Counted from the stretch's first letter, positions 1-11,288 are shown. The stretch: 32,000 bases of DNA from Halomicronema hongdechloris C2206 (GCF_002075285.3 NZ_CP021983.2:3540001-3572000); one strand, 5' to 3'. Made by a program: numbers and translations. The notes: generated by a model from the sequence alone, not told the origin.

Positions 1-52
1 GCCTATCCACCCTGTTTGAGGTAGATATACTGCAACTGTCGATCTAATAAGA

Positions 53-59
53 GTTGGAC
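53..59 (+). repeat. GTTGGAC, the right-hand (R'-type, GTTRRRY) core of an attC-like site whose body lies left of the window
   Basis: It is the exact reverse complement of GTCCAAC at 855-861, the left box of the next attC-like site downstream. Confidence 0.4.
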
Positions 60-95
60 AGCGCTCGAACACGATCGTGAAACGCACAGTGCCCG

Positions 96-899
96 ATGAG
101 AGAAGTGCTATCTGAACACCTAGCCACGTTCATCCGGTCCCTCCCGGAGAAGCGCGAGTACGCCCGCGACGATCTTCTCGTTCCTGCGCTGAAGGTCGCC
201 GAGGATGCCGACAAGGGGCTTGCCGTGTACGACGCTCCGTTCGGCTGGGGCAACCAAGAAGCGCGTGTGGCCCTGATTGGCGTGACGCCGGGTTTCACCC
301 AGATGCAGATTCTCTATCGCGTAGTGCGGAGGCACCTCCTGTTGGGTGCGAGCCCCGAAGACGCTTGCAGGTTGGCCAAGTACGAAGCCAGCTTTGGTGG
401 CACCATGCGCGGGAATCTCGTTCGGATGCTGGACGAGCTCGGGGTGCCGGAACTCCTCGAGGTCGCATCCACCGCCGATCTCTTTGGTTCCAGTTCCCAT
501 CTTCTGCACACCACTTCGGCTGTTCGGTACCCGACGTTCCTCCACGGGCAGAACTACACTGGCAGTCAGCCGCGGCTCGTGAGGTCCGCCTTCTTGATGC
601 GATACGTTCGGGACGTTCTTGCGCCGGAGCTGTCCCGGCTCCATGCTGCAGTCTTCGTTCCACTCGGCAAGAGCGTCGCCGAGGCCTTGGAGCTACTGGA
701 GACCGAGCAGCGCATCCCGGCTGGTCGAACGCTACATGGATTCCCACATCCATCGGGCGCGAACGGTCACCGCGCGCGGCAATTCGAGAAGGGGAAGCCC
801 GCGATGAGGCGGCGGTTCGAGGAGATCTTGTGTGGAGGTGCCTCGGCGGGCGCTGTCCAACAACAGCATGCAGCGGACGGCGCTGCGCGCCGCCGCTGA
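96..899 (+). CDS. Uracil-DNA-glycosylase-superfamily-like protein (267 aa)
   Basis: This long ORF is in G+C-rich DNA. ALIGVTPGF (aa 59-67) sits where the UDG-fold GxxPG motif A lies, and GFPHPSGANGH (aa 215-225) matches the HPS-type motif B. The low-complexity C-terminus runs into attC-like site 855-914, with the stop TGA at 897-899 inside its stem. The overlapping ORFs in other frames are shadows. Confidence 0.55.
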   Translation: MREVLSEHLATFIRSLPEKREYARDDLLVPALKVAEDADKGLAVYDAPFGWGNQEARVALIGVTPGFTQMQILYRVVRRHLLLGASPEDACRLAKYEASFGGTMRGNLVRMLDELGVPELLEVASTADLFGSSSHLLHTTSAVRYPTFLHGQNYTGSQPRLVRSAFLMRYVRDVLAPELSRLHAAVFVPLGKSVAEALELLETEQRIPAGRTLHGFPHPSGANGHRARQFEKGKPAMRRRFEEILCGGASAGAVQQQHAADGAARRR

Positions 900-914
900 T
901 GCCACACGTTATGC
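855..914 (+). repeat. attC-like site D (60 nt)
   Basis: Left box GTCCAAC (855-861) and right box GTTATGC (908-914). Between them, 871-898 folds as CAGCGG-a-CGGCGC / GCGCCG-CCGCTG, a 12-bp stem with one bulged A and a 3-nt loop. It sits exactly at the switch from G+C-rich to AT-rich DNA. Confidence 0.55.
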
Positions 915-1030
915 GGCTTTAACTTTTGGTGGTGAGACGGTATTTGAAGGCTACTGACTAGATGATGCGAGTTTAGAAAAGTCATGGTGAGATAGATCGC
1001 TCTTAGCGAGGAATATGACTTTTGTATAGG

Positions 1031-1876
1031 TTATGTTAAAAAGTTGTAGTGCTCACAAAGCTTCTTCAACTTGCTTATTAATTGATTTTGTACGCTTGCA
1101 GGAGATAAAACTAGACATTCTTCCCCATAACGTAGGATCTCTCGAATAAACCAGAATGTATTTGATACACGTCTAACTATGTAGCGAGCATCGTCCTTTA
1201 CCTCATTGGTTATGTCATCTGGTTTAGGTTCATAAGCTTTTACCAACCTTCCCAATACTTGTAAGTGCACTTCGATATATTCAAGCCGATCTTGCCAACT
1301 GCCACTTGCTGGCAAGACGTTGATAATTCTATCTAAACGGAAGCAACGGTTATGGATTAGCTCGGGTAGATTCAAGCTACCCTCCGTTTCCTCACACCAT
1401 GCTTCTAGATAGAATCGCTTTTCCCAAAAGCGAATTTCGCCGTAGCGAACGGTAAATTCCATCTGTTTGTTTTGAGAGTCTTCATAAAACAGATGAAAAG
1501 GCTGTTTAGCTTTAATTTGCTGATCAATGACTCTACGCCATGATTCAGTAGGATGACTAACTTGTTCCAGCAGTGCCTGGCGTAAAGGTGTCTCTAAATT
1601 GCCATGTTCTAGTAGGAAAAGGGCCAAAGTCTGTGCATCGGCAATATGACCAGAATCAACCAATAGTCTTATAGCTTGTCTGATGGCTGTATTTTGACTT
1701 GGGTCAAGTGCAAGTACACTGCCAACCTCAAGTTGGTGTTGAGCGATCGCCACGACTAACCCTGAAATACTGGGTTTATCGCCCCACATAATGCCTAAGC
1801 CATCAGCTATTGCCTCTAACTGCTCTTTAGTTCCAGGTGGGATGGAAAGTGTGATTGTCTCCTTTCTACGCGCCAT
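1031..1876 (-). CDS. WYL-domain transcriptional regulator with an N-terminal ribbon-helix-helix-like segment (281 aa)
   Basis: The N-terminus TITLSIPPGTKEQLEAIA is RHH-like. A WYL-type core (FTVRYGEIRFWEKRFYLEAWCEE ... RCFRLDRI) is followed by a C-terminal extension, as in BrxR/CapW-class regulators. It is transcribed divergently from the operon starting at 2182. Confidence 0.75.
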   Translation of the reverse strand: MARRKETITLSIPPGTKEQLEAIADGLGIMWGDKPSISGLVVAIAQHQLEVGSVLALDPSQNTAIRQAIRLLVDSGHIADAQTLALFLLEHGNLETPLRQALLEQVSHPTESWRRVIDQQIKAKQPFHLFYEDSQNKQMEFTVRYGEIRFWEKRFYLEAWCEETEGSLNLPELIHNRCFRLDRIINVLPASGSWQDRLEYIEVHLQVLGRLVKAYEPKPDDITNEVKDDARYIVRRVSNTFWFIREILRYGEECLVLSPASVQNQLISKLKKLCEHYNFLT

Positions 1877-2181
1877 TTTAGTTATACTTGCACCTTTCAG
1901 GAAATGTCGTTAGTATACATATATAGTCCATTCTCTCAAAATCTTACCTGAGTTTACTCAATTGTATCACCGTCTCAGTGAGGGATTCCCAGCATTACCC
2001 TGGAAATCAATATCTGCTGTGTGTCAGTGAAGAATCCTGGATCACGTGGATTTACAGAGATACTTCGTGAGAATAACCCTGTTCTTCGGCTTCAGCTAAT
2101 TGAGTCAAGAAGTCTGTAAACCAAAGCTAGCAGTAAACTTCAAACTCATTCACTCGAGTTCAATTCCCAGCGAGGTCTCAA
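1877..2181. promoter_or_regulatory. Divergent intergenic control region (305 bp) between the WYL regulator and the MBL/E2-E1-JAB operon
   Basis: Both genes must be promoted from here. It contains an imperfect palindrome GATTCCCAG-N7-CTGGAAATC (1984-2008) and related half-sites (GAATCCTGG / GTGGATT, about 2031-2055). No promoter boxes are called with confidence. Confidence 0.4.
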
Positions 2182-3327
2182 ATGCACAAAGTTATTTTCT
2201 ATCCAGTACAAAATGGTGATACGAGCCAAATTATTTTGAGTAATGGTAAGCGCCTATTATTTGACTTTCGCCATTTGAATCGTGGGGAGAAGGAGGATGA
2301 TCCTGCTATTGATCTCAAAAGCCAACTAAATAGCGAACTTGCGAAAGCAAAACGCGATTACTTTGATGTTCTAGCTCTTACCCACGCAGATTTGGATCAC
2401 ATCTTGCATAGCACCGAGTTCTTTGAGCTACAGCACAATCCTGCTTATCAAGGCAATGGACGAATCAAGGTTAATGAGTTGTGGGTTCCAGCCGCCATGG
2501 TACTGGAGACAGCTACAACCGAGCAGTGGAAAACAAAAACAGAGTTTGTCCTTTGGCGTCAGGAGGCTCGGCACCGTCTTCTTAGAGGCGAGGGTATTAA
2601 GGTTTTCTCAAAACCGAAAAAGTTGAAAAGCTTCCTTGAGGAAAATGGGCTAACTGTAGAGTCACGTCGTGGCCTAATTGTTGATGCTGGAAAACCAGCT
2701 GTTCCAGGATTCTCTCTTGAGAAAGATGGCGTTGAATTCTTCTGCCATTCTCCATTCGTTAAGCATGTTGATGAAGGCGATGACTTACGAAATGATGCCT
2801 CGCTTATTCTCCAAGTTCGTTTTGAAGTTGCAGGTATTCAAACCAACTACCTTGCTGTGGGGGACTCAACCTGTGGCGTGCTTGAAGATATTGTACACAC
2901 CACTAAAGAGCACGAAAATGAAGACAGATTGGAATGGCATTTGTTTAACATCCCTCATCATTGCAGCCATCACGCCCTGAATTCAGACGACAAAGGTGAT
3001 AAAGAAACAGTTCCCCTTCCTTTAGTGAAAGAACTGCTCATGTACGGTCAATCAGGAGCCTACATTGTGAGTTCAAGCAAGCCAATTCCTGATACTAAAG
3101 GAGCCTACCAACAGGAACTCCCACCCCATATCCAAGCAAGAAAATGCTACGAACGGTACTTGAGGCAGATCGGTGGACGGAGGTTCGTTGTCACTATGGA
3201 GGAGCCGAACGAACGAAAGCCACAGCCTTTGGAGTTTGATATCACCAGCGCAGGAGTCAGTTTGAATACGACTGGAAACTCTGGTGTTAACATCATTGTC
3301 TCTTCTCCAACACCAAGGGCAGGTTAG
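2182..3327 (+). CDS. Metallo-beta-lactamase-fold protein, ComEC/Rec2-like subtype (381 aa), ending in ...PRAG
   Basis: THADLDH (aa 67-73) occupies the HxHxDH position. IPHHCSHH, followed by AYIVSSS...PPH, resembles the HHGS...HP tail of ComEC-type MBL domains. GCGAGG lies about 12 nt upstream of the ATG. The stop TAG (3325-3327) directly abuts the next ATG. Confidence 0.8.
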   Translation: MHKVIFYPVQNGDTSQIILSNGKRLLFDFRHLNRGEKEDDPAIDLKSQLNSELAKAKRDYFDVLALTHADLDHILHSTEFFELQHNPAYQGNGRIKVNELWVPAAMVLETATTEQWKTKTEFVLWRQEARHRLLRGEGIKVFSKPKKLKSFLEENGLTVESRRGLIVDAGKPAVPGFSLEKDGVEFFCHSPFVKHVDEGDDLRNDASLILQVRFEVAGIQTNYLAVGDSTCGVLEDIVHTTKEHENEDRLEWHLFNIPHHCSHHALNSDDKGDKETVPLPLVKELLMYGQSGAYIVSSSKPIPDTKGAYQQELPPHIQARKCYERYLRQIGGRRFVVTMEEPNERKPQPLEFDITSAGVSLNTTGNSGVNIIVSSPTPRAG

Positions 3328-5571
3328 ATGGCAGATACATATACCAACTTTGGTGAGGTAATTTCTGAACTCACCGAAGACACCTTGGTTATCCCAATCT
3401 CGCGTCGAGTTTTTAGAGCTTGTTCTACCCATAATTTATTTGAGCTTATCGAGCTAAGATGTTTTGTTCACGACGGGCAACGCACAGCGGAAATGCTCGT
3501 TGTTGATTGCACTAATGACAGTGTCCCTACCAAAAACGAAATTGGGATCCTCTACCAAGAGCGTATTGGCTTAATCTTCAGTACTGAAGAAACCAAAATG
3601 CCTGAGATACGAGCGTTGCGAAAAGATTTCCCCGTAACCTCACACCAAAATCTTGTTAGAAAGGATGAACCTGCGTCGTTGTGCCTTTATTTTGAACCTT
3701 GGGAAGTAGTGCAACGTTCTTGGACTCCTCGAAGCCATCTTAATCGAGTATTATGGTGGCTTTCTGAAACCGCTAGAGGCACTTTACATCGTGAAGATCA
3801 ACCAGTTGAACCGTTCTATTTTCGCAGTCTCTTCGAGATTATCCTACCTCCAAATTTTGACGAAAAAATTCAGCATCCTGATTTTTTTCTGACGCTCAAA
3901 AGAGTAGAGAATAGAGTCTTTTTAGGATGCTTTTTACAAGCTTCCAGGAAAAAAAGTGTTCAGATAGAGCTAACCTGTCTCGCTATTGCTCTTCAACCAG
4001 TAACTCACGGCTTTATTGAACCTTTTCCATATGATTTAGGAACACTTGACAAGCAATTTTCAGCGCGAGGCGCTACTCTGTTCGATTTGCTTTGTGCTGA
4101 GATCAAGCGTAGCGTGAATGGAGAAGGAACTCCAAAGGTATCTGATAGTAAAACACTTCTTATTTTTCAGATACCTGTTCAACGAAGTGGCAATAGTGTT
4201 GTAGAGCGAAATGAATACAAAGCGTTCTATCTCAACATCAATCTTGGGAAGTTAGGCGAAGCATGCGGTGTGTTAACAGATGGCACAGATGGTAACTACT
4301 ACAATATTCCTGCTTTTGGCGAAGATTTGAGTTCCAATGATGCTTGGCGCTCTATTGACGTTGAACCGATCGAGATTATATTCTCTCTGACTTATGAAAC
4401 TGCACGCCAAGCTTCTGGTATCACTGCTGACACTGCTGAACTTTCTGGTGTTCTTGCAGGTGTTGGGGCACTTGGTAGCAGTCTTGCCGACATCTGGTAT
4501 CGAGAGGCGTGGGGCACCTGGACATTTGTTGATATCGATTACATTAAGCCGCATAATTTAGCCCGACATACAGCTAAACATTTTCAGGTTGGTCAGTTTA
4601 AAGCAAATGCAGTCAAACAAACAGTAGAGGAAACCTATTTTGACGGCTATGCAAAAGCTTCTGCTATTGTCGATAGTGTGACTAATTGGTCAAATGCAGA
4701 CTTGAAGACTGCTGTTGAAAGTGCAGATTTAGTAGTTGATGCAACAACTACGCTTGCAGTGCCGCGTGATTTAGCGATCGCTGACCTTAAACGATCAGCA
4801 TCTATTTTTCTAACTCCTTCTGGACACGACTCTGTTTTACTTCTCGAAGATTCCGATCGGAACGTACGCTTAGATGGACTGGAGGCACAATATTACGAAG
4901 CCATCTTGAATAATGCTTGGGGTGAGCAACATCTGCTTGGACATCAAGGGCATCTTTGGGTTGGTGCAGGATGTCGTGATGTATCAAGTGTGATACCAGT
5001 CGAGCTTCTTCAGCTTCATGCTGCAACACTTGCACGGCAAGTTAGGCTCAGATGTGAGCAACCCGATCCTGTAATCTCGGTATGGCATGTTGAGCAGCTA
5101 TCTGGGACCATTAATGTTCACACAATATCTGTGGCTGCAAACCTAACTGTGGCTGCTAATGGTTGGAACATTATATGGAACGCTCGCTTGCAGGATAAGG
5201 CTAGGCAAATTCGTGCTGCTAATCTTCCAAATGAAACGGGCGGAGTCTTACTCGGCTATTTTGATCAAAAATTACAGTCAATCTTCGTGGTCGATATCCT
5301 CTCTGCTCCCTTAGACAGTGCAGCAGATTCAAGTGGATTTATACGCGGCGTTCAGGGTCTTGAGGAACAGATCAAAATGGCGCAAGCACGGACAGCTAAC
5401 ATTGTGTCCTACATTGGTGAATGGCATTCTCATCCACCAGGAATCTCAGCTAGACCGAGTGGATACGATATCAACCTCTTGAGCTATCTTGCTGAGATTC
5501 TCAATCGTGATGGACTGCCAGGTGTAATGCTCATTGTTGGTGAAAATCAGGAAACATGGTCAATCCGATAA
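3328..5571 (+). CDS. Single-chain E2-like / E1-like (ThiF) / JAB (JAMM) fusion protein (747 aa)
   Basis: E2-like module: SHQN (aa 105-108) then SLCLY, with Cys119 at nt 3682-3684. E1 module: GVGALGS (aa 378-384), FVDIDYIKPHNLARH (aa 400-414) and GAGCRD (Cys549). JAB module: NETGGVLLG (Glu636) and HSHPPGISARPSGYD (aa 700-714, His700 at nt 5425-5427). Confidence 0.85.
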   Translation: MADTYTNFGEVISELTEDTLVIPISRRVFRACSTHNLFELIELRCFVHDGQRTAEMLVVDCTNDSVPTKNEIGILYQERIGLIFSTEETKMPEIRALRKDFPVTSHQNLVRKDEPASLCLYFEPWEVVQRSWTPRSHLNRVLWWLSETARGTLHREDQPVEPFYFRSLFEIILPPNFDEKIQHPDFFLTLKRVENRVFLGCFLQASRKKSVQIELTCLAIALQPVTHGFIEPFPYDLGTLDKQFSARGATLFDLLCAEIKRSVNGEGTPKVSDSKTLLIFQIPVQRSGNSVVERNEYKAFYLNINLGKLGEACGVLTDGTDGNYYNIPAFGEDLSSNDAWRSIDVEPIEIIFSLTYETARQASGITADTAELSGVLAGVGALGSSLADIWYREAWGTWTFVDIDYIKPHNLARHTAKHFQVGQFKANAVKQTVEETYFDGYAKASAIVDSVTNWSNADLKTAVESADLVVDATTTLAVPRDLAIADLKRSASIFLTPSGHDSVLLLEDSDRNVRLDGLEAQYYEAILNNAWGEQHLLGHQGHLWVGAGCRDVSSVIPVELLQLHAATLARQVRLRCEQPDPVISVWHVEQLSGTINVHTISVAANLTVAANGWNIIWNARLQDKARQIRAANLPNETGGVLLGYFDQKLQSIFVVDILSAPLDSAADSSGFIRGVQGLEEQIKMAQARTANIVSYIGEWHSHPPGISARPSGYDINLLSYLAEILNRDGLPGVMLIVGENQETWSIR

Positions 5572-5587
5572 ATACAGGAGTAAACAT

Positions 5588-6376
5588 ATGGTTATAGATT
5601 TTATTGAAAAGAACTTTGATGATTATAACCGCAAGGCTAGACTAGCACCTGCCTTACTTGTTAGTTTACCGATCGCATTGACTGTCATTGCATTTTCCCC
5701 AAATCATGTTTGGTCATGGGGAGGAGTAGCCAGTTTGCTTGCTTGGTTTGGAATACTCAAGCTCTTGGCACAACTTGCTCGTGATATGGGTAAAGCTAAA
5801 GAAGAGGAGTTATACACTGCTTGGGGTGGTAAACCTACAACGTACTTTCTGCGGTACCGTACTACACGAAACAAAGTAAATTTGGCTCGTCAACATAGAA
5901 AGTTACATGAGTTAACAGGGCAGTCTATACCGAATGAAAGCGAAGAATTGGCTAATCCAGATTTAGCAGATCAAATATACGATACGTGTACTCAATTTTT
6001 GCTTTCTAAGACACGCGATCATAGTAAATTTTTTCTGATTTATGAAGAAAATTGCAATTATGGTTTTCGACGAAATTTACTAGGAATGAAATTCCTTGGA
6101 ATTTTAACTTCATCTATAGGTGTGTTTTTTATTGGAGCACAGTGTATTTCCAAAATTGGATTGCTTAATATATTTGCAGCCAGGCAAGTCAATAGTTTAA
6201 TTCAGGCAGGAACGAATTTACAATTCTCTAACTGTTCTTCATTATCAGTTGCTTGTTTACTGGTAAATTTTTTTCTGCTTATCGCCTGGTTATTGTGGAT
6301 CAATTCGGGTTGGGTGAAAATAGCAGCTGATGCATATGCGATCAGGCTACTTGAATCTTGTGAAAATTTACCCTAA
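5588..6376 (+). CDS. Membrane protein with about four predicted TM helices (262 aa), last gene of the operon
   Basis: The ATG at 5588 is preceded by AGGAG (5576-5580). The 5534 start in the ORF track would overlap the previous gene and has no RBS. Hydrophobic segments are LAPALLVSLPIALTVIAF, GGVASLLAWFGILKLLAQL, FLGILTSSIGVFFIGAQ and LSVACLLVNFFLLIAWLLWI. I recognise no family. Confidence 0.7.
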   Translation: MVIDFIEKNFDDYNRKARLAPALLVSLPIALTVIAFSPNHVWSWGGVASLLAWFGILKLLAQLARDMGKAKEEELYTAWGGKPTTYFLRYRTTRNKVNLARQHRKLHELTGQSIPNESEELANPDLADQIYDTCTQFLLSKTRDHSKFFLIYEENCNYGFRRNLLGMKFLGILTSSIGVFFIGAQCISKIGLLNIFAARQVNSLIQAGTNLQFSNCSSLSVACLLVNFFLLIAWLLWINSGWVKIAADAYAIRLLESCENLP

Positions 6377-6469
6377 TGCTTCCTAAAGTTAGGTTTCTGC
6401 GCTATTTATAATGTTGAGTAACTCAGGCTGAATTGCGGTTTGTAGTTGCGAATCAGGCAAGCGCCAGCC

Positions 6470-6557
6470 ACATAACATTGCGCTGAACCGGAACGGAGCG
6501 TAAGCTTTCTGCTAAGTTGCAAAGGCTGTCGCCGTCCGGTTAGCTTAAACGTTAGAC
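6470..6557 (+). repeat. attC-like site A (88 nt)
   Basis: Left box ACATAAC (6470-6476) and right box GTTAGAC (6551-6557). The stem is AACCGG-a-ACGG (6486-6496) / CCGT-CCGGTT (6532-6541), with the same bulged-A architecture as sites D and B. It shares about 100 nt of similarity with sites B and C. Confidence 0.55.
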
Positions 6558-6745
6558 CGCTTAGCCCCAGTGGAGACAGTAACCTAAAAATCAAGCAAAC
6601 GTTCAATAATTGGTGAAAATAAAACCAAGGAGCTATCAAGGAATTTGACAGTGCAATTTAAATCTTGTTGTACTGTCCTCGTTTTCGAGAGTAAGATTTA
6701 AAGAAGATTTTTATCCCACTGTTCAAATACAGGGAGAGTGTAAAA

Positions 6746-8158
6746 ATGACTTCCATCAAAATCTCTGGTTCACATGATGACTTAGAGATGATTGAGTCAT
6801 TAAGCAAAGAGATTTTTCGAGAAAATGAAATCCCAGTTAAAACTCAAATTTCTGAGTTTCGTAAAGATAGCATTGATGCAGAAATCGTTCTGCCTGTACT
6901 TTCAGTTACTTTTAGTGGGGTGATAGCAGTTGCTCAAATAATTAATCTTATACTAAATATACAGGAGAAGAGAAGCAAGAGTATTGCCCAAAAAGATACT
7001 CCTATCTCCCTCAAAATTGAGGCAAGTAATGGAAAAGAACTAGATTTTAGGATTTCTGGTAGCACGACAAACGAAGAAATAAGAAAGTATTTGAGTTCTG
7101 TCAATCAATTTATTGATGATTTTCTTCGAGATGATGATGGCATTTCATTAAATAATGATCAGCTAGGAGAGACTGCAAGCTCAACAGATATCGAAAAGAT
7201 CAATTTGCTATTTAGAGGTTTGTTAAGCAATCTGACTGATATAAGAGAATGGAAATCTTTACCTCCAAAAAAGAATGGAGAAATAATTACTTTTAAATCA
7301 ACTTTTGAGAAAACTAGCTTGAGAAAACTTATTTGTAACTCCAGAGTTTCAAAGATCTACTTAAACTATGAGGAAGCCAAGCTTTGTAAAGGGCTATTCT
7401 ATATCTTGGAAAGGGAAAACATTTTAACTTTTCATGAATTAAGCGATGATTTTCGTGTAATTGACATGGAAAATATGTTTGTCAGATATGAAGTAGAAGA
7501 GCTTGCAATATTTAATAGAGTAAATCATCTTAAAAACTTTTTTCTAAACGATATATCCTCTCCATCTGCTACTGAAAACCTAGGTGAAGTAATTTCAATT
7601 TTGCTACTCTCAGCCGATCCATCTGATGCTACTAGATTAAGGATCGGAGAAGAATTTAGAGAAATCCAAGATAAGCTTCAACTAGCACAATTAAGAGAAC
7701 GGTTTAGACTAAATCTTCGGATGTCCGCTCGCCCAGAAGACATCAGCCAATCATTACTAGATTCGCAGCCACAAATTGTGCATTTTTCTGGTCATGGCTT
7801 AGCTACTGGTGAGTTGTGTTTTGAAGACAAAATAGGAAAAGTACATCCAGTTTCACCTGATGCCTTGGCAGCTTTATTTGAGCAATTTGCAAGTCAAATC
7901 AAATGTGTGCTGCTCAATGCTTGTTACTCAAAAGCTCAGGCGATTGCCATTGCTCAGCACATTGACTACGTGATTGTTATGAATCAAGCTATTGGCGATA
8001 AAGCTGCAATTGCATTCACTATTGGTTTTTATCAAGCACTAGGGGCAGGACGTACGTTCAAAGAAGCTCATAAATTTGGATGTATCCAAATTAGGTTACA
8101 AAGTATTCCCGAACACTTGACTCCTATTCTTCTTGAGAGAGGCGCATGTGATTACTAA
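6746..8158 (+). CDS. Membrane-anchored CHAT/caspase-like protease-domain protein (470 aa)
   Basis: RBS-like GGGAGAG lies upstream of the ATG. The N-terminal ~90 aa contain one hydrophobic helix (IVLPVLSVTFSGVIAVAQIINLIL), reminiscent of EACC1-type effector-associated modules. The C-terminal ~185 aa match the cyanobacterial CHAT-type module (ILLLSADPSD..RLRIGEEFREI..) with the His/Cys dyad in IVHFSGHG (His350) and LLNACYS (Cys393). The stop TAA lies in a TACTAAC box. Confidence 0.75.
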   Translation: MTSIKISGSHDDLEMIESLSKEIFRENEIPVKTQISEFRKDSIDAEIVLPVLSVTFSGVIAVAQIINLILNIQEKRSKSIAQKDTPISLKIEASNGKELDFRISGSTTNEEIRKYLSSVNQFIDDFLRDDDGISLNNDQLGETASSTDIEKINLLFRGLLSNLTDIREWKSLPPKKNGEIITFKSTFEKTSLRKLICNSRVSKIYLNYEEAKLCKGLFYILERENILTFHELSDDFRVIDMENMFVRYEVEELAIFNRVNHLKNFFLNDISSPSATENLGEVISILLLSADPSDATRLRIGEEFREIQDKLQLAQLRERFRLNLRMSARPEDISQSLLDSQPQIVHFSGHGLATGELCFEDKIGKVHPVSPDALAALFEQFASQIKCVLLNACYSKAQAIAIAQHIDYVIVMNQAIGDKAAIAFTIGFYQALGAGRTFKEAHKFGCIQIRLQSIPEHLTPILLERGACDY

Positions 8159-8167
8159 CGCTGTCTA

Positions 8168-8563
8168 ATCGGGATAGGGGAAAACCTCACGGTCTCCCCC
8201 TCCCACACCACCCATCGTGCGGGTCCGCAATGGGCGGTTCTCAACCTAAGTGCTAGACAGACTGACGGACTTGTCCTCGTAGCCCTGAACCTTCATCCAG
8301 AGGTCACGAATCGAAAGCAATCCCTGTTGTGCTAACCACTCATTCGTCATCCCTGTCTGCGTCGCCAACGTCCGCGACAACCGCCAATATCCCTTCCGGC
8401 TCAAGCCAGTGGAAAGGGCGTGCTGCCTCGGCGTTCCCAGTTTCAACAAATTGCCGATGCGCGTCCTCGGTCTACGCCATTGTTTCCAATAACACATCCG
8501 GATTCGTCGCCTCAGTGCGATCGCATATCGCCGTAGGTTGGGTTGAGACACGAAACCCAACAC
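8168..8563 (-). mobile_element. 5'-truncated group II intron remnant (3' end of the intron-encoded protein plus domains V and VI)
   Basis: The minus strand encodes the maturase tail. It is followed by a domain-V-like hairpin (8207-8238: 9-bp outer stem, 2-nt bulge, 4-bp inner stem, tetraloop). Next is a domain-VI-like helix (8171-8204) with a bulged A at 8175, 7 nt from the inferred 3' end at about 8168. The upper boundary is approximate. Confidence 0.7.
8246..8563 (-). pseudogene. Group II intron reverse transcriptase/maturase, C-terminal fragment only
   Basis: RRRIRMCYWKQWRRPRTRIGNLLKLGTPRQHALSTGLSRKGYWRLSRTLATQTGMTNEWLAQQGLLSIRDLW is the characteristic maturase (X/thumb) tail of intron-encoded proteins. 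The RT domain is absent. Confidence 0.75.
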
Positions 8564-8591
8564 TCACAGGCTTTAGCCAGTATAATTGTAC

Positions 8592-8719
8592 GGTGGGCAT
8601 TATCTTTTCCGAGATCCTTGCTAACCCATACTCAACCTACAATGCCCACCACTGAAAAAAGGTGGGCAAACAAAGCTTAGAGACGATAGCAAGGGGTGTC
8701 TATTATGGCTTTGCCCACC
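8592..8719. repeat. Two tandem 59-nt hairpin units built on GGTGGGCA / TGCCCACC arms
   Basis: GGTGGGCAT (8592-8600) pairs with ATGCCCACC (8642-8650). GGTGGGCAAA (8661-8670) pairs with TTTGCCCACC (8710-8719). Confidence 0.5.
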
Positions 8720-8747
8720 CTACTTCACTACTTCACTACTGACCGCT

Positions 8748-8822
8748 GGTGGCACAGATGACATCGACAACATACAGCCCCTTTGTTATCAGTGCAATTC
8801 ATCCAAGTTCAATGGTCGTTGA
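8748..8822 (+). pseudogene. HNH endonuclease C-terminal fragment
   Basis: It translates to GGTDDIDNIQPLCYQCNSSKFNGR*, which has the GG..N..LC..C..K end of the HNH motif. The upstream His residues and a start codon are missing. Confidence 0.4.
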
Positions 8823-8830
8823 AAAGAACA

Positions 8831-9163
8831 CTAATGAAGTTCCAGACAGTGCAACTCGGGATTGTTCAAGAGTTCTTGAATTGCTGTTGCTCCGGAACGA
8901 ATTAATGCTTCGACTTGATTAGTTGGTGCATTGCCACATCGCAACCAAACAACTTTGGGTGGAGAGCCATAAAGCCGACTTCTTTCAGAGAAATCTGCAT
9001 CTTGCGTCACTATGCAAAAGTCATTGAGCTTAGCAAAATCCCAGATTTCAGTATCTGTTTTCTCAGCTAGGTCATGGAATTGAACGTGGCTGGATTCAGG
9101 AAAAATATCAGCCAACCGATTAATCAGCTTACGGCTAAGGTTTTGGTCAAACAGCAGCTTCAA
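8831..9163 (-). CDS. DUF5615-family (PIN-like/Mut7-C-like) putative toxin (110 aa)
   Basis: MKLLFDQNLSRKL...IWDFAKLNDFCIVTQDADFSE is typical of DUF5615 partners of DUF433. It overlaps the upstream gene by 4 nt. Confidence 0.75.
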   Translation of the reverse strand: MKLLFDQNLSRKLINRLADIFPESSHVQFHDLAEKTDTEIWDFAKLNDFCIVTQDADFSERSRLYGSPPKVVWLRCGNAPTNQVEALIRSGATAIQELLNNPELHCLELH

Positions 9164-9414
9164 GCAGCACTCACCGATGCAACTAAACGATGTTCGCGAT
9201 CAGCTGCGAACTCTAAACAAGCCCTAATGTCAGTTTCCGTTAATTCTGGAAAGTCGTCAATGATTTCAGCGGTAGACATACCAGCCGCTAACCAGCCCAA
9301 GACATCGTAGACCGTAATCCGCATCCGGCGGATGCATGGCTTGCCACCACGCTTATCAGGCTCAATCGTAATGATGTCGCGATAGCTCATAATACGGACA
9401 GGCTGCTTGTGCAT
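9160..9414 (-). CDS. DUF433-family putative antitoxin (84 aa; alternative start at 9390)
   Basis: ITIEPDKRGGKPCIRRMRITVYDVLGWLAAGMSTAEIIDDFPELTETDIRACLEFAA is the DUF433 signature. Confidence 0.75.
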   Translation of the reverse strand: MHKQPVRIMSYRDIITIEPDKRGGKPCIRRMRITVYDVLGWLAAGMSTAEIIDDFPELTETDIRACLEFAADREHRLVASVSAA

Positions 9415-9430
9415 ACCTAAGTCTAAAGCA

Positions 9431-9517
9431 GGCTAACACCTCGCTGCAACGGACGGCGATTAGTTGGTCGATCTGAGGCAAGAGGTTGTCTGCCGCCGTT
9501 GAGCTTCACCGTTAGTC
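9431..9517 (+). repeat. attC-like site B (87 nt)
   Basis: Left box GGCTAAC (9431-9437) and right box GTTAGTC (9511-9517); the reverse complement of the left box matches the right box at 6 of 7 positions. The stem is CAACGG-a-CGGC (9447-9457) / GCCG-CCGTTG (9492-9501). Confidence 0.55.
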
Positions 9518-10010
9518 CGCAAGGTTATCTTTGGAGCGTTCATCAATCTTATTTGTTGGAATTCAGCAGCTAGCCACTGCGAGTCCGTCTGAGGGCGACG
9601 CGCTTGAAAACTACTATAGAGAACTAATTTCCAGATGTCGTTGCAAGTTAAACTAGCGTTAGCTGCCAATTCGCTCGATCTGAACTGTACACTGTTGCCA
9701 TAGGTAGAAAGTGTTAAATACAAGGATTTTGCACCTAGAGTTACGAAACGAGGCCCTTTCGGAGGTGCTACCGAAATAGATTGTTTCTCCGCTGCTGTCA
9801 GTGCTGCGAATCATTGGCTTGAGAGTAACCCCGTACAAGTTGTGAATATCGAGACAATAATGTCGCCGAATGTCAAAAGTGCTACAGATGCTGGGGCATA
9901 CAGATTTGGTATGGGGTTAGATAACTGGCATCAGTATGTACATGTCTGGTATATGGAAGAACAGGAAAGTTATAATAATCCTTAAAATTATTGCGACAAT
10001 TGATTGGGGT

Positions 10011-10289
10011 ATGAGTCAGCAGCTAGTTTTGGAAATCAGCGATGAAGTTTACGCAGACTTGCAGCGTAAGGCGAATGCAGTGGGCGTATCCATCCCGGAG
10101 TGGATAATTACTGTTCTCAGCAGGCAAGGGGAAGCTGTCACCAAATTAATACTGTCTCCGGAGCGGCAAGAGCAAGCACGACAGAAATTCAAGAGTCATG
10201 CAGGTGCAATTAGTCTAGGGCACGCGACGGGTTCTGATAACCAAGCGATTGATGCTGATCTCGCAAGAGCTTATGCCGATGAGTATTAG
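10011..10289 (+). CDS. Antitoxin-like small protein, partner of the PIN toxin (92 aa)
   Basis: I prefer the start MSQQLVLEISDEVYADLQRKA at 10011; the 9936 start adds an implausible hydrophobic leader. The C-terminal GHATGSDNQAIDADLARAY motif is common in cyanobacterial PIN-associated antitoxins. The gene lies 15 nt upstream of the PIN gene. Confidence 0.65.
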   Translation: MSQQLVLEISDEVYADLQRKANAVGVSIPEWIITVLSRQGEAVTKLILSPERQEQARQKFKSHAGAISLGHATGSDNQAIDADLARAYADEY

Positions 10290-10304
10290 GCGCGGAGTGA
10301 CTTT

Positions 10305-10709
10305 GTGCTTCTAGATACATCAGGCTTGTTGTGCTACGTCCATCGTGACGAACCGCAGCATGAAAAGGCAGTTCAGTTAGTCGATGGTGCAGGCAGTAGA
10401 CTCTTGACTCACAGCCATGTTTTAGCTGAGTTGATTGCTCTTGCACTGGTTCGCCGACTTCCTCGGACAAAAGTTCTAGAGTTTGTGGTTGACCTGGTTG
10501 ATAACCCGGACATAGAAATAGTCTGGGTTGATGAGTCGCGACACCGAGAGGCAATGCAGCTTTTGGTTAATCGACAGGACAAAACCTACTCATTGTGCGA
10601 TGCGGTCAGTTTTGTCCTGATGCGCCAGCGTGGCATCAGCGATGCATTAACGACAGACTGTCACTTTGAGCAGGAGGGGTTTATCAGGTTGTTGCCGCCA
10701 GCAAGCTAA
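10305..10709 (+). CDS. vapC: PIN-domain ribonuclease toxin, VapC-like (134 aa, GTG start)
   Basis: LLDTSGL (first acidic residue), LTHSHVLAELIAL, SLCDAVSF and LTTDCHFEQEGF give the PIN acidic-residue pattern. The stop TAA lies inside the AGCTAAC box of attC-like site C. Confidence 0.75.
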   Translation: MLLDTSGLLCYVHRDEPQHEKAVQLVDGAGSRLLTHSHVLAELIALALVRRLPRTKVLEFVVDLVDNPDIEIVWVDESRHREAMQLLVNRQDKTYSLCDAVSFVLMRQRGISDALTTDCHFEQEGFIRLLPPAS

Positions 10710-10788
10710 CACCTCAGCGCAGCGAACAGTCAAAGTTTTCTGGTGAAATGCCGAGGGTGTCTGCCGCCGCTGGCTTTCACCGTTATGC
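10704..10788 (+). repeat. attC-like site C (85 nt, more degenerate stem)
   Basis: Left box AGCTAAC (10704-10710) and right box GTTATGC (10782-10788). Its right half, CTGCCGCCGCTGGCTTTCACCGTTATGCGGCT, closely matches 888-918 of site D. Confidence 0.5.
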
Positions 10789-11046
10789 GGCTGCAGTCCC
10801 TGGTGAAAGCAATCCCTGTAACCCTCGGTCAGCATGAAGGGCTGCTCTTCTACCGCTCTCTGGGTAAGCGGTGTAGGATGGTAGCAAGGAGGGTAATACG
10901 AATGTTCCTATCATCGACGAAGTCGTTGAACAGTTGAAAGCTATGCCTCAGCCTTTGCAAAGGCAGGTGCTTGAGTTTGTTATATCAAATCCGCTAAGAC
11001 AGGCAACATTACGATGATGTATCACAACTGCAATCCGTCATTCCGG

Positions 11047-11170
11047 GCAAGCGCAGCGCGCCCCGGAATCTAGGCAGAGCGCTTTGGGCGTAGCTGAGAT
11101 TGATGCCCTGGATTCCCGCCTTAAGGCCTCCGGCCTCGCTTCGCGAAACGCGGGAATGACAGAGATCTGT
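11047..11170. repeat. MITE-like palindromic element (124 bp) at the right edge of the island
   Basis: The termini are GTCATTCC (11047-11054) and GGAATGAC (11163-11170). Internal hairpins are ATTCCGGG/CCCGGAAT (11050-11079) and ATTCCCGC/GCGGGAAT (11122-11167), the latter with a nested AGGCC/GGCCT hairpin. Confidence 0.5.
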
Positions 11171-11288
11171 TTTCCTAGGTGAATTAACCGGATTTCATAT
11201 TAGATCATTGGTGAAAGCAGAGGTTTGAGGTACACCAGGGCAACAATTGCTGCGTTTTGCTGGTTCAATTCCTTGCCGCCGCATAACA

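Follow-up and report, generated by a model that had tools for sequence, protein, structure and literature searches.

What does a bacterial conjugation apparatus act on when no ubiquitin-like protein is encoded beside it? This question is raised by a four-gene locus at positions 1031-6376 of a 32,000-nucleotide stretch of the genome of Halomicronema hongdechloris C2206 (the window; locus tags XM38_033610 to XM38_033640). A gene for a transcription regulator with WYL and WCX domains on the minus strand (1031-1876, 281 aa) diverges from three plus-strand genes, which encode a metallo-β-lactamase (MBL)-fold metallohydrolase of the ComEC type (2182-3327, 381 aa), a single-chain E2-E1-JAB enzyme (Cap2_3; 3328-5571, 747 aa) and a protein with about four transmembrane segments (the 4-TM protein; 5588-6376, 262 aa). 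An earlier reading of this DNA (the original prediction) had given ORF (open reading frame) coordinates, strands and junctions that our six-frame ORF list and sequence read-out matched exactly. It had also proposed a novel conjugation-based defence system to which no experimental function had been assigned. We found that the core pair, MBL and Cap2_3, is an already named and curated system, 6A-MBL, and that this copy is a new cyanobacterial member of it. The locus as a whole is very probably a cyanobacterial copy of the 6A-MBL anti-phage system on a mobile cassette of low guanine-cytosine (GC) content, and we propose a mechanism for it below.

Identity of the core gene pair

NCBIfam release 20 contains two equivalog models for this system, NF058524 ('anti-phage 6A-MBL system MBL-fold protein') and NF058523 ('anti-phage 6A-MBL system cap2_3 protein'). 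The window MBL scored 387.4 bits against NF058524 (cutoff 220), with amino acids 6-358 covering the full model, and the 747-aa protein scored 682.1 bits against NF058523 (6A-MBL_cap2_3; cutoff 320). Both models were also passed by the relatives that we inspected from E. coli and Acinetobacter plasmids, Oscillatoria and Acidobacteria. The two genes are adjacent and co-directional with the MBL gene first, the E2, E1 and JAB modules follow in that order, and the catalytic residues are intact. Thus, XM38_033620 and XM38_033630 can now be labelled 6A-MBL enzyme and cap2_3.

Row '6a' of Table 1 in the survey of Iyer, Burroughs and Aravind from 2006 (PMC1779556) describes exactly this operon type, in line with the surveys by these authors that the original prediction had named, and the class is said there to be 'usually two genes'. 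Row 6b of the same table is the nucleotidyltransferase operon that is now type II CBASS, and 6A-MBL is a sister of type II CBASS. According to papers that cite it, van den Berg et al. 2024 (Cell Host Microbe 32:1427) named 6A-MBL and tested it against phages. A 2026 review places 6A-MBL among Pseudomonas aeruginosa components with 'experimental confirmation of antiphage activity' and cites the same study, and the Brouns group counts it among 'known jumbo phage defense systems'. Because the curated models are passed and, on the word of these citing papers, anti-phage activity has already been published, the claim of novelty fails for the core pair.

A truly new defence system, distinct from all those described, is therefore very improbable. 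It would agree with PADLOC-DB v2.0.0 (2023), which has no dedicated 6A-MBL model and returned only generic CBASS E1-E2/JAB and MBL matches for the window proteins when we asked whether any of its models calls the locus. It would also agree with the public names of the window proteins, which are still 'hypothetical protein' and 'ThiF family adenylyltransferase' (the regulator, WP_080814145.1, is a 'WYL domain-containing protein'), and with a fourth gene that is unannotated in Pfam, NCBIfam and PADLOC. Against this stand the wide margins by which the equivalogs are passed, the description of the operon class in 2006, the activity published in 2024 according to citing papers, and the occurrence of Cap2_3 relatives in 260 plasmid records (167 from Klebsiella); for the core pair the idea is already refuted. 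The original prediction had named an existing model for the exact gene set as grounds for abandoning it. The NCBIfam models cover the two core genes of that set and leave out the 4-TM gene and the particular WYL regulator. The existing descriptions available to us also leave out the 4-TM partner family and an effector-like variability of the third gene, the latter being a property of the wider family and not of the window.

The pairing itself is constant. In a metagenomic set of 80 loci (68 distinct), Cap2_3 directly followed the MBL gene wherever the contig allowed this to be seen. All six related cyanobacterial genomes carry MBL, Cap2_3 and the 4-TM gene in this order, with different flanks in every genome. 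Neighbours in other genomes include type I restriction-modification (R-M), pPIWI_RE and AbiE genes.

Conserved modules of Cap2_3

The original prediction had seen E2, E1 and JAB modules in the 747-aa protein, and three Pfam domains were found in that order. The E2 module (3469-3855, plus strand) matches Prok-E2_A (PF14457; aa 48-176, E = 1e-28), the E1 module (4447-4980, plus) matches the adenylation family ThiF (PF00899; aa 374-479, E = 1.2e-11), and the JAB/JAMM metallopeptidase module (5182-5559, plus) matches Prok-JAB (PF14464; aa 619-744, E = 1.1e-11). We aligned 55 non-redundant homologues whose identity to the window protein is 36-72%. The E2 cysteine Cys119 (3682-3684), the E1 loop cysteine Cys549 (4972-4974) and the adjoining R550, the positions G378, G380 and G383 of the GxGxxG motif (aa 378-383), D402, D404 and R413, and the JAB residues H700, S701, H702, S711 and D714 are conserved in 55 of 55. 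Glu636 of the JAB module and H106 and N108 of the E2 module are each conserved in 54. The catalytic residues named beforehand (Cys119, Cys549, Glu636, His700 and His702) are thus all conserved in 54 or 55 of the 55 homologues. PADLOC E1-E2 and JAB models matched with E = 2e-23 and E = 3.5e-23, and there is weak sequence similarity to the Cap2 structures 7to3 and 7tsq and to the JAB peptidase 9ild. The NCBIfam Cap3 model scored 29 bits (cutoff 200).

These data also bear on a housekeeping role in a ThiF/MoeB-type sulfur-transfer or cofactor pathway. NCBIfam ThiF/MoeB adenylyltransferase models do match Cap2_3, but weakly, at no more than 37 bits against cutoffs of 152-510. A ThiS or MoaD gene nearby, which the original prediction had said would point to such a pathway, is absent from the window ORF list. 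The conserved E2 cysteine and the JAB module also argue against this role, as do the low-GC island, the unrelated flanks in every genome and the frequent occurrence on conjugative plasmids. We regard a housekeeping role as effectively refuted, with a negligible chance of being correct.

The MBL enzyme and its C-terminal tail

The MBL protein had no match in Pfam. An AlphaFold2 model shows a compact MBL fold (predicted local distance difference test, pLDDT, 82.9; predicted template modelling score, pTM, 0.86), and its closest solved fold is the β-lactamase-like (nuclease) domain of ComEC, 9ic4 (E = 7.7e-13, TM score 0.70 on the target), followed by Pce phosphodiesterase. This agrees with the ComEC type assigned in the original prediction, as does the invariance, across 42 sequences, of the four metal ligands it had named, H68, D70, D72 and H73; the ligands H189, D228, H259 and H260 are invariant as well. 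The generic defence MBL models RTasMBL, LmuA and Avs1a of PADLOC matched weakly. Judging from the modelled fold, the enzyme is most likely a nucleic-acid or phosphodiester hydrolase.

The last residues of the MBL differ from the rest of the model. Residues 366-381 (3277-3324, plus strand) form a disordered tail with pLDDT below 50 that ends in P-R-A-G. The junction with Cap2_3 (3313-3330) is 'cca agg gca ggt TAG ATG', the MBL stop codon (3325-3327) abutting the Cap2_3 start codon at 3328. We surveyed 183 unique MBL homologues (120 database proteins plus the metagenomic loci), two of which are truncated fragments. All 181 full-length proteins contain P-[RK]-A-G. In 158 this motif is the exact C-terminus, and in the other 23 a further 1-7 residues come after it (C, VK, SR, VINQ-like and others). 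ComEC-like MBLs with no Cap2_3 neighbour lack the motif and end, for instance, in …VEE, …FEE or …TNA. The NF058524 hidden Markov model stops at about residue 358, and the tail is therefore an observation independent of the family assignment.

In type II CBASS, only operons with Cap2 and Cap3 have a conserved C-terminal Gly/Ala on the CD-NTase, and the Cap2 thioester, conjugation and defence all depend on this residue. Because the RAG tail is universal among the full-length homologues and disordered in the model, the motif is absent from MBLs with no Cap2_3, and the CBASS signature is alike, we consider it very likely that the MBL is the E1 substrate and predict from its sequence that it is conjugated in place of ubiquitin. 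The original prediction had stressed that no separate ubiquitin-like protein (Ubl) gene is present, and no candidate was found in the window ORF list or the profile scans. The lack of such a gene is no anomaly, because the MBL itself carries the conserved C-terminal RAG tail. A hidden Ubl fused to the MBL C-terminus was considered and rejected, as the model shows a 16-residue disordered tail and no β-grasp domain. Residues beyond RAG, seen in 13% of the homologues, suggest a further task for the fused JAB module, the maturation of precursors. In the literature we found no mechanistic work on MBL-type conjugation beyond a discussion from the Corbett laboratory. The P-[RK]-A-G tail offers a cheap and sharp test of whether bacteria conjugate whole enzymes rather than ubiquitin-like tags; if this is true of the MBL, it would extend the 'cGASylation' principle of CBASS to a hydrolase.

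One form with a precursor-like tail occurs on the E. coli plasmid pKMi029_1 (locus L098; NZ_CP147110.1, 91237-95640). A divergent WYL gene is followed there by MBL and Cap2_3, and a third gene is lacking; the genes are flanked by umuD/umuC' and an integrase/IS1 and lie near ardA. The MBL ends in '…APRAGVINQ' and would need trimming past the glycine. In RefSeq they are still a 'hypothetical protein' and a 'Mov34/MPN/PAD-1 family protein'.

Variable genes in the third slot

We scored the slot after Cap2_3 in the 48 metagenomic loci with enough flank. It holds a patatin in 16 loci, a second ComEC-like MBL in about 10, another transmembrane protein of about 234 aa in three, a member of the window's 4-TM family in one and a metallophosphatase in one; nothing convincing was found in the remaining loci. 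The slot holds a DUF6338 gene on an Acinetobacter plasmid and is empty on the E. coli plasmid. The patatin-like phospholipase genes (PF01734, E = 5e-15; loci L016, L021, L022, L037, L038, L046, L048, L051, L055, L065, L067, L071, L076, L077, L086 and L091) start -58 to 0 nt from the Cap2_3 stop codon, as translationally coupled third genes. NCBIfam has no models for third-gene partners.

The third-gene slot thus behaves like the effector slot of CBASS, and the frequent patatin gene leaves room for the MBL as a sensor or signal-making enzyme. The MBL would then stand in for the CD-NTase, and killing would fall to the variable third gene. The variation of the slot across the 48 loci and in Acinetobacter points this way, as do the patatin genes that overlap or abut the Cap2_3 stop codon and the term 'signaling enzymes' for the conjugated proteins in the Corbett-laboratory text. 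However, a third gene is missing from many loci, among them the common enterobacterial plasmid form, the closest fold to the MBL is a nuclease domain, and the 4-TM protein also accompanies MBLs that lack conjugation machinery. Since the third gene is often absent and the class 'usually' has two genes, the pair must be able to work alone. We consider a signal-making or sensing role for the MBL decidedly unlikely. We know of no signal-making MBL.

The 4-TM protein and its MBL-fold neighbours

The Cap2_3 stop codon (TAA, 5569-5571) is followed by a 16-nt spacer, atacAGGAGtaaacat, which contains AGGAG, and then by the ATG of the 4-TM gene at 5588 (end 6376, plus strand). The protein had no Pfam, NCBIfam or PADLOC match. 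The roughly four transmembrane segments expected from the original prediction correspond to four hydrophobic segments at about aa 17-37, 44-64, 171-195 and 223-247. Between the second and third lies a conserved basic cytoplasmic domain of about 105 residues (aa 65-170) that bears most of the invariant positions, which are R65, G68, W79, G81, P83, R89, H103, E120, Y131, R143 and the motif EENCNYGFRRNL. The AlphaFold2 model is all-helical (pLDDT 91.2, pTM 0.85), and a fold search with it gave no meaningful match, the best in PDB having E = 0.27 and the best in BFVD E = 0.26.

An exhaustive profile search placed 3147 clusters (at 50% identity) in the family, 1360 of them at E <= 1e-30, and nearly all members are stand-alone proteins of 235-260 aa. 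Among the best 150 of the 3147, a search for fusions found two longer proteins only. One protein in which half an MBL is joined to a 4-TM protein through an Arg/Ala/Pro-rich stretch (P0347) was not taken as evidence, since it looks like a frameshift or a read-through of overlapping genes.

A 4-TM gene follows an MBL-Cap2_3 pair in the window, in all six cyanobacterial relatives (L001-L006) and in L014, L007, L094 and L096. It also follows a lone MBL of the PADLOC type PDC-M48B (L009, L011, L093 and L095), often with a further MBL next, as in L093, L097 and L007, and in L043 and L056 an MBL-plus-4-TM module lies beside a 6A-MBL pair. The placement varies: the gene may follow Cap2_3 or a second MBL, or it may precede the 6A MBL. 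An MBL-fold gene was a neighbour in every sampled context, and an association of the 4-TM family with MBL-fold enzymes is therefore established.

Could the 4-TM gene nevertheless be an unrelated passenger of the system? Of about 48-68 sampled 6A-MBL loci only 3 have it (about 5%), it lies outside the NCBIfam definition of the system, and most family members seem to reside in MBL-only modules. Against this, it is separated from Cap2_3 by only the AGGAG-bearing spacer, it is kept in 6/6 cyanobacterial loci despite their differing flanks, it turns up again beside 6A-MBL pairs with MBLs that share only about 27% identity (L094 and L096), and it is always beside an MBL-fold gene, even though its position varies. 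On balance, a passenger is unlikely. A role as a membrane anchor, coupling partner or effector may be inferred. The family and the variable third gene both bear on what the MBL does and where it does it.

Some further arrangements were seen. A gap of about 200 nt separates Cap2_3 from the 4-TM gene in the Nostoc loci (L004-L006). The 4-TM-bearing 6A-MBL cassette of Oscillatoria sp. FACHB-1407 (L094, 5830-10732) adjoins pPIWI_RE, and that of a metagenomic contig (L096, 6143-7653) adjoins AbiEi/AbiEii and an integrase. A ComEC-like MBL (PDC-M48B, with E values down to 1e-101) and a 4-TM protein, often with a second MBL, form stand-alone modules in L011 (5916-7729), L093 (3935-6765), L095 (3892-5729), L009 (5993-7720) and L097 (5001-6787). 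These stand-alone modules sit in defence islands with type I R-M, SLFN/AlbA_2 and AbiE genes.

The WYL regulator and the divergent intergenic region

The original prediction had called the operon WYL-regulated. The regulator matches Pfam WCX above the cutoff (E = 5.6e-8) and two PADLOC WYL models (E = 3e-15 and 5e-12), and its gene is divergent from the operon. The usual N-terminus of CapW/BrxR-type WYL regulators is a winged helix-turn-helix (HTH). The N-terminal 50 or so residues of the window protein (…ETITLSIPPGTKEQLEAIADGLG…SISGLVVAIAQ…) gave a weak match to Pfam RHH_1 (CopG) and look ribbon-helix-helix (RHH)-like, not winged-HTH-like. The regulator is a candidate CapW/BrxR-type protein, with both domain types (WYL and WCX) and a divergent gene, but with an RHH-like N-terminus and, in the shared promoter region, conserved blocks and no inverted repeat.

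A WYL gene recurs in three of the six cyanobacterial relatives and in L013. Opposite-strand WYL genes are found in 7 of 49 metagenomic loci and on the E. coli and Acinetobacter plasmids, where an unrelated WYL gene occupies the same position; BLAST found no similarity between the window protein and the WYL proteins of these two plasmid systems. Several other loci have HTH/M78 (CapH/CapP-like) proteins upstream, such as the HTH-Peptidase_M78 protein of L014. Because the gene recurs but is swapped in many loci, WYL regulation is a common but exchangeable feature of the system. The regulator is probably a repressor or sensor of the cassette. The intergenic region between the WYL and MBL genes (1877-2181) is the candidate promoter/operator region. 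Blocks within it, for example ATGTGTCAGTGAA and TTGTTCTTCGGCTTCAGCTA, are conserved across five related loci, and promoter-like matches occur there at chance frequency.

In the Nostoc loci L004-L006, a conserved co-directional ORF of 120-124 aa (MSQGQCPSSTLLLQGLTPDTIANLGAAIEFRHLKLAF…; about 4373-4747, plus strand) replaces the WYL gene directly upstream of the MBL gene.

A proposed mechanism

By analogy with CapW and BrxR, the WYL regulator would hold the operon low until a cue of stress or infection. The E1 module would then adenylate Gly381, and the MBL would pass as a thioester to Cys549, next to Cys119 of the E2 module, and finally to target lysines, a sequence of steps suggested by the conserved residues, the RAG tail and the CBASS precedent. 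The MBL would in this way serve as its own 'ubiquitin', as the CD-NTase does in type II CBASS. We infer that the fused JAB module may trim post-RAG extensions where these are present, reverse conjugation, or both, and so set a threshold. A ComEC-type MBL 'primed' by conjugation could degrade nucleic acid and halt infection; the fold and metal ligands are observed, and the substrate is our supposition. The 4-TM protein would be an optional partner of the MBL; its most likely role would be to position the enzyme at the membrane or couple it there, or that of an added membrane effector.

Four points weigh against the identification of the locus and this scheme. First, a patatin third gene in about one-third of loci is awkward for the MBL as sole effector. 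Second, the Pfam WYL model scored 19.9 bits on the regulator, slightly below its gathering cutoff of 21.8. Third, no operator for the WYL protein was found in 1877-2181, which contains no inverted repeat of at least 8 nt. Fourth, the phage protection attributed through citing papers is that of a P. aeruginosa system.

A bolder version of the scheme makes the 4-TM protein a required membrane partner of the MBL, whether as anchor, activator or conjugation target, to give a split ComEC-like membrane nuclease against phage DNA, with the third slot as an effector slot and the MBL not the final killer. We put this forward tentatively, as possible though doubtful.

Comparison with known systems

The window resembles described 6A-MBL loci in its MBL gene followed by a single-chain E2-E1-JAB gene, and has the same RAG tail, catalytic residues and mobile or defence context. 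It differs in the added 4-TM gene (about 5% of sampled loci) and in a WYL protein with an RHH-like N-terminus and no BLAST similarity to the enterobacterial ones.

Type II CBASS has homologous E2-E1 and JAB modules (Cap2 and Cap3), a conserved C-terminal glycine on a disordered tail, upstream regulators of the CapW-like WYL or CapH/CapP-like type, and a variable third or fourth gene that may be a patatin. In the window, however, the glycine is on the MBL and not on a CD-NTase, Cap2 and Cap3 are fused, and the conjugated enzyme would be a ComEC-like MBL hydrolase. The window has no cyclic-nucleotide receptor domain, and no ORF or profile match for a CD-NTase was found in 1-9000, in agreement with the original prediction.

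Bil (BilABCD) and Bub systems likewise use E1, E2 and JAB-type chemistry for anti-phage defence. They encode a separate β-grasp Ubl and separate E1 and E2 proteins, whereas the window has no Ubl ORF and its MBL C-terminus has no β-grasp domain.

Component B of the PADLOC candidate system PDC-M48 is a ComEC-like MBL, and the window's 4-TM family directly follows PDC-M48B-type MBLs in L009, L011, L043, L056, L093 and L095. Those MBLs, in contrast to that of the window, lack the RAG tail and Cap2_3, and the 4-TM protein matches no PADLOC model. Membership of the window MBL itself in PDC-M48 was rejected, as it did not match the PDC-M48B models.

The MBL fold also matches ComEC/Rec2, and an MBL beside a membrane protein recalls, by analogy, the transmembrane-plus-MBL layout of ComEC. 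The sequence identity is 15%, however, the ComEC NCBIfam models are not passed, and no resemblance of the 4-TM protein to the ComEC competence domain or to a solved structure could be detected.

Genomic setting

Over 1001-8000 the GC content is 0.35-0.44, compared with about 0.60 on either side. The locus is part of an accessory island of low GC content and about 10 kb (about 950-11200), which is bordered on one side by a UDG-like gene (96-899) and on the other by housekeeping genes (alpha/beta hydrolase, O-antigen ligase, aconitase and NorB). A scan of the window for tRNA and Rfam features that would mark the island borders found none. The island also holds a CHAT protein and PIN-type toxin genes, and the accessory island with toxin-antitoxin modules and a caspase-like gene described in the original prediction is therefore present.

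The CHAT (caspase-like) protease domain is at the C-terminus of a 470-aa protein encoded at 6746-8158 on the plus strand (Pfam E = 3.8e-7; PADLOC 'chat' E = 3.5e-14). Its N-terminal 280 or so residues have no profile match and include a hydrophobic stretch at about aa 47-70. We rejected this gene as a component of the system, since no related locus carries it downstream. It belongs to the island separately and may encode a stand-alone defence protease.

An ORF of 105 aa at 8246-8563 (minus strand), rich in Arg, Trp and Lys (…RRRIRMCYWKQWRRPRTRIGNLLKLG…), resembles by eye the maturase C-terminus of the reverse transcriptase from a group II intron; it is probably a remnant. No intron RNA was found around it at the Rfam gathering threshold. 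Two toxin-antitoxin-like pairs follow. The first (8831-9414, minus) combines a DUF5615/PIN_10 gene (E = 1.7e-35) with an overlapping upstream ORF of 84 aa. In the second (9936-10709, plus), a 134-aa ORF (10305-10709) that is PIN (VapC)-like by eye is preceded by an ORF of 117 aa.

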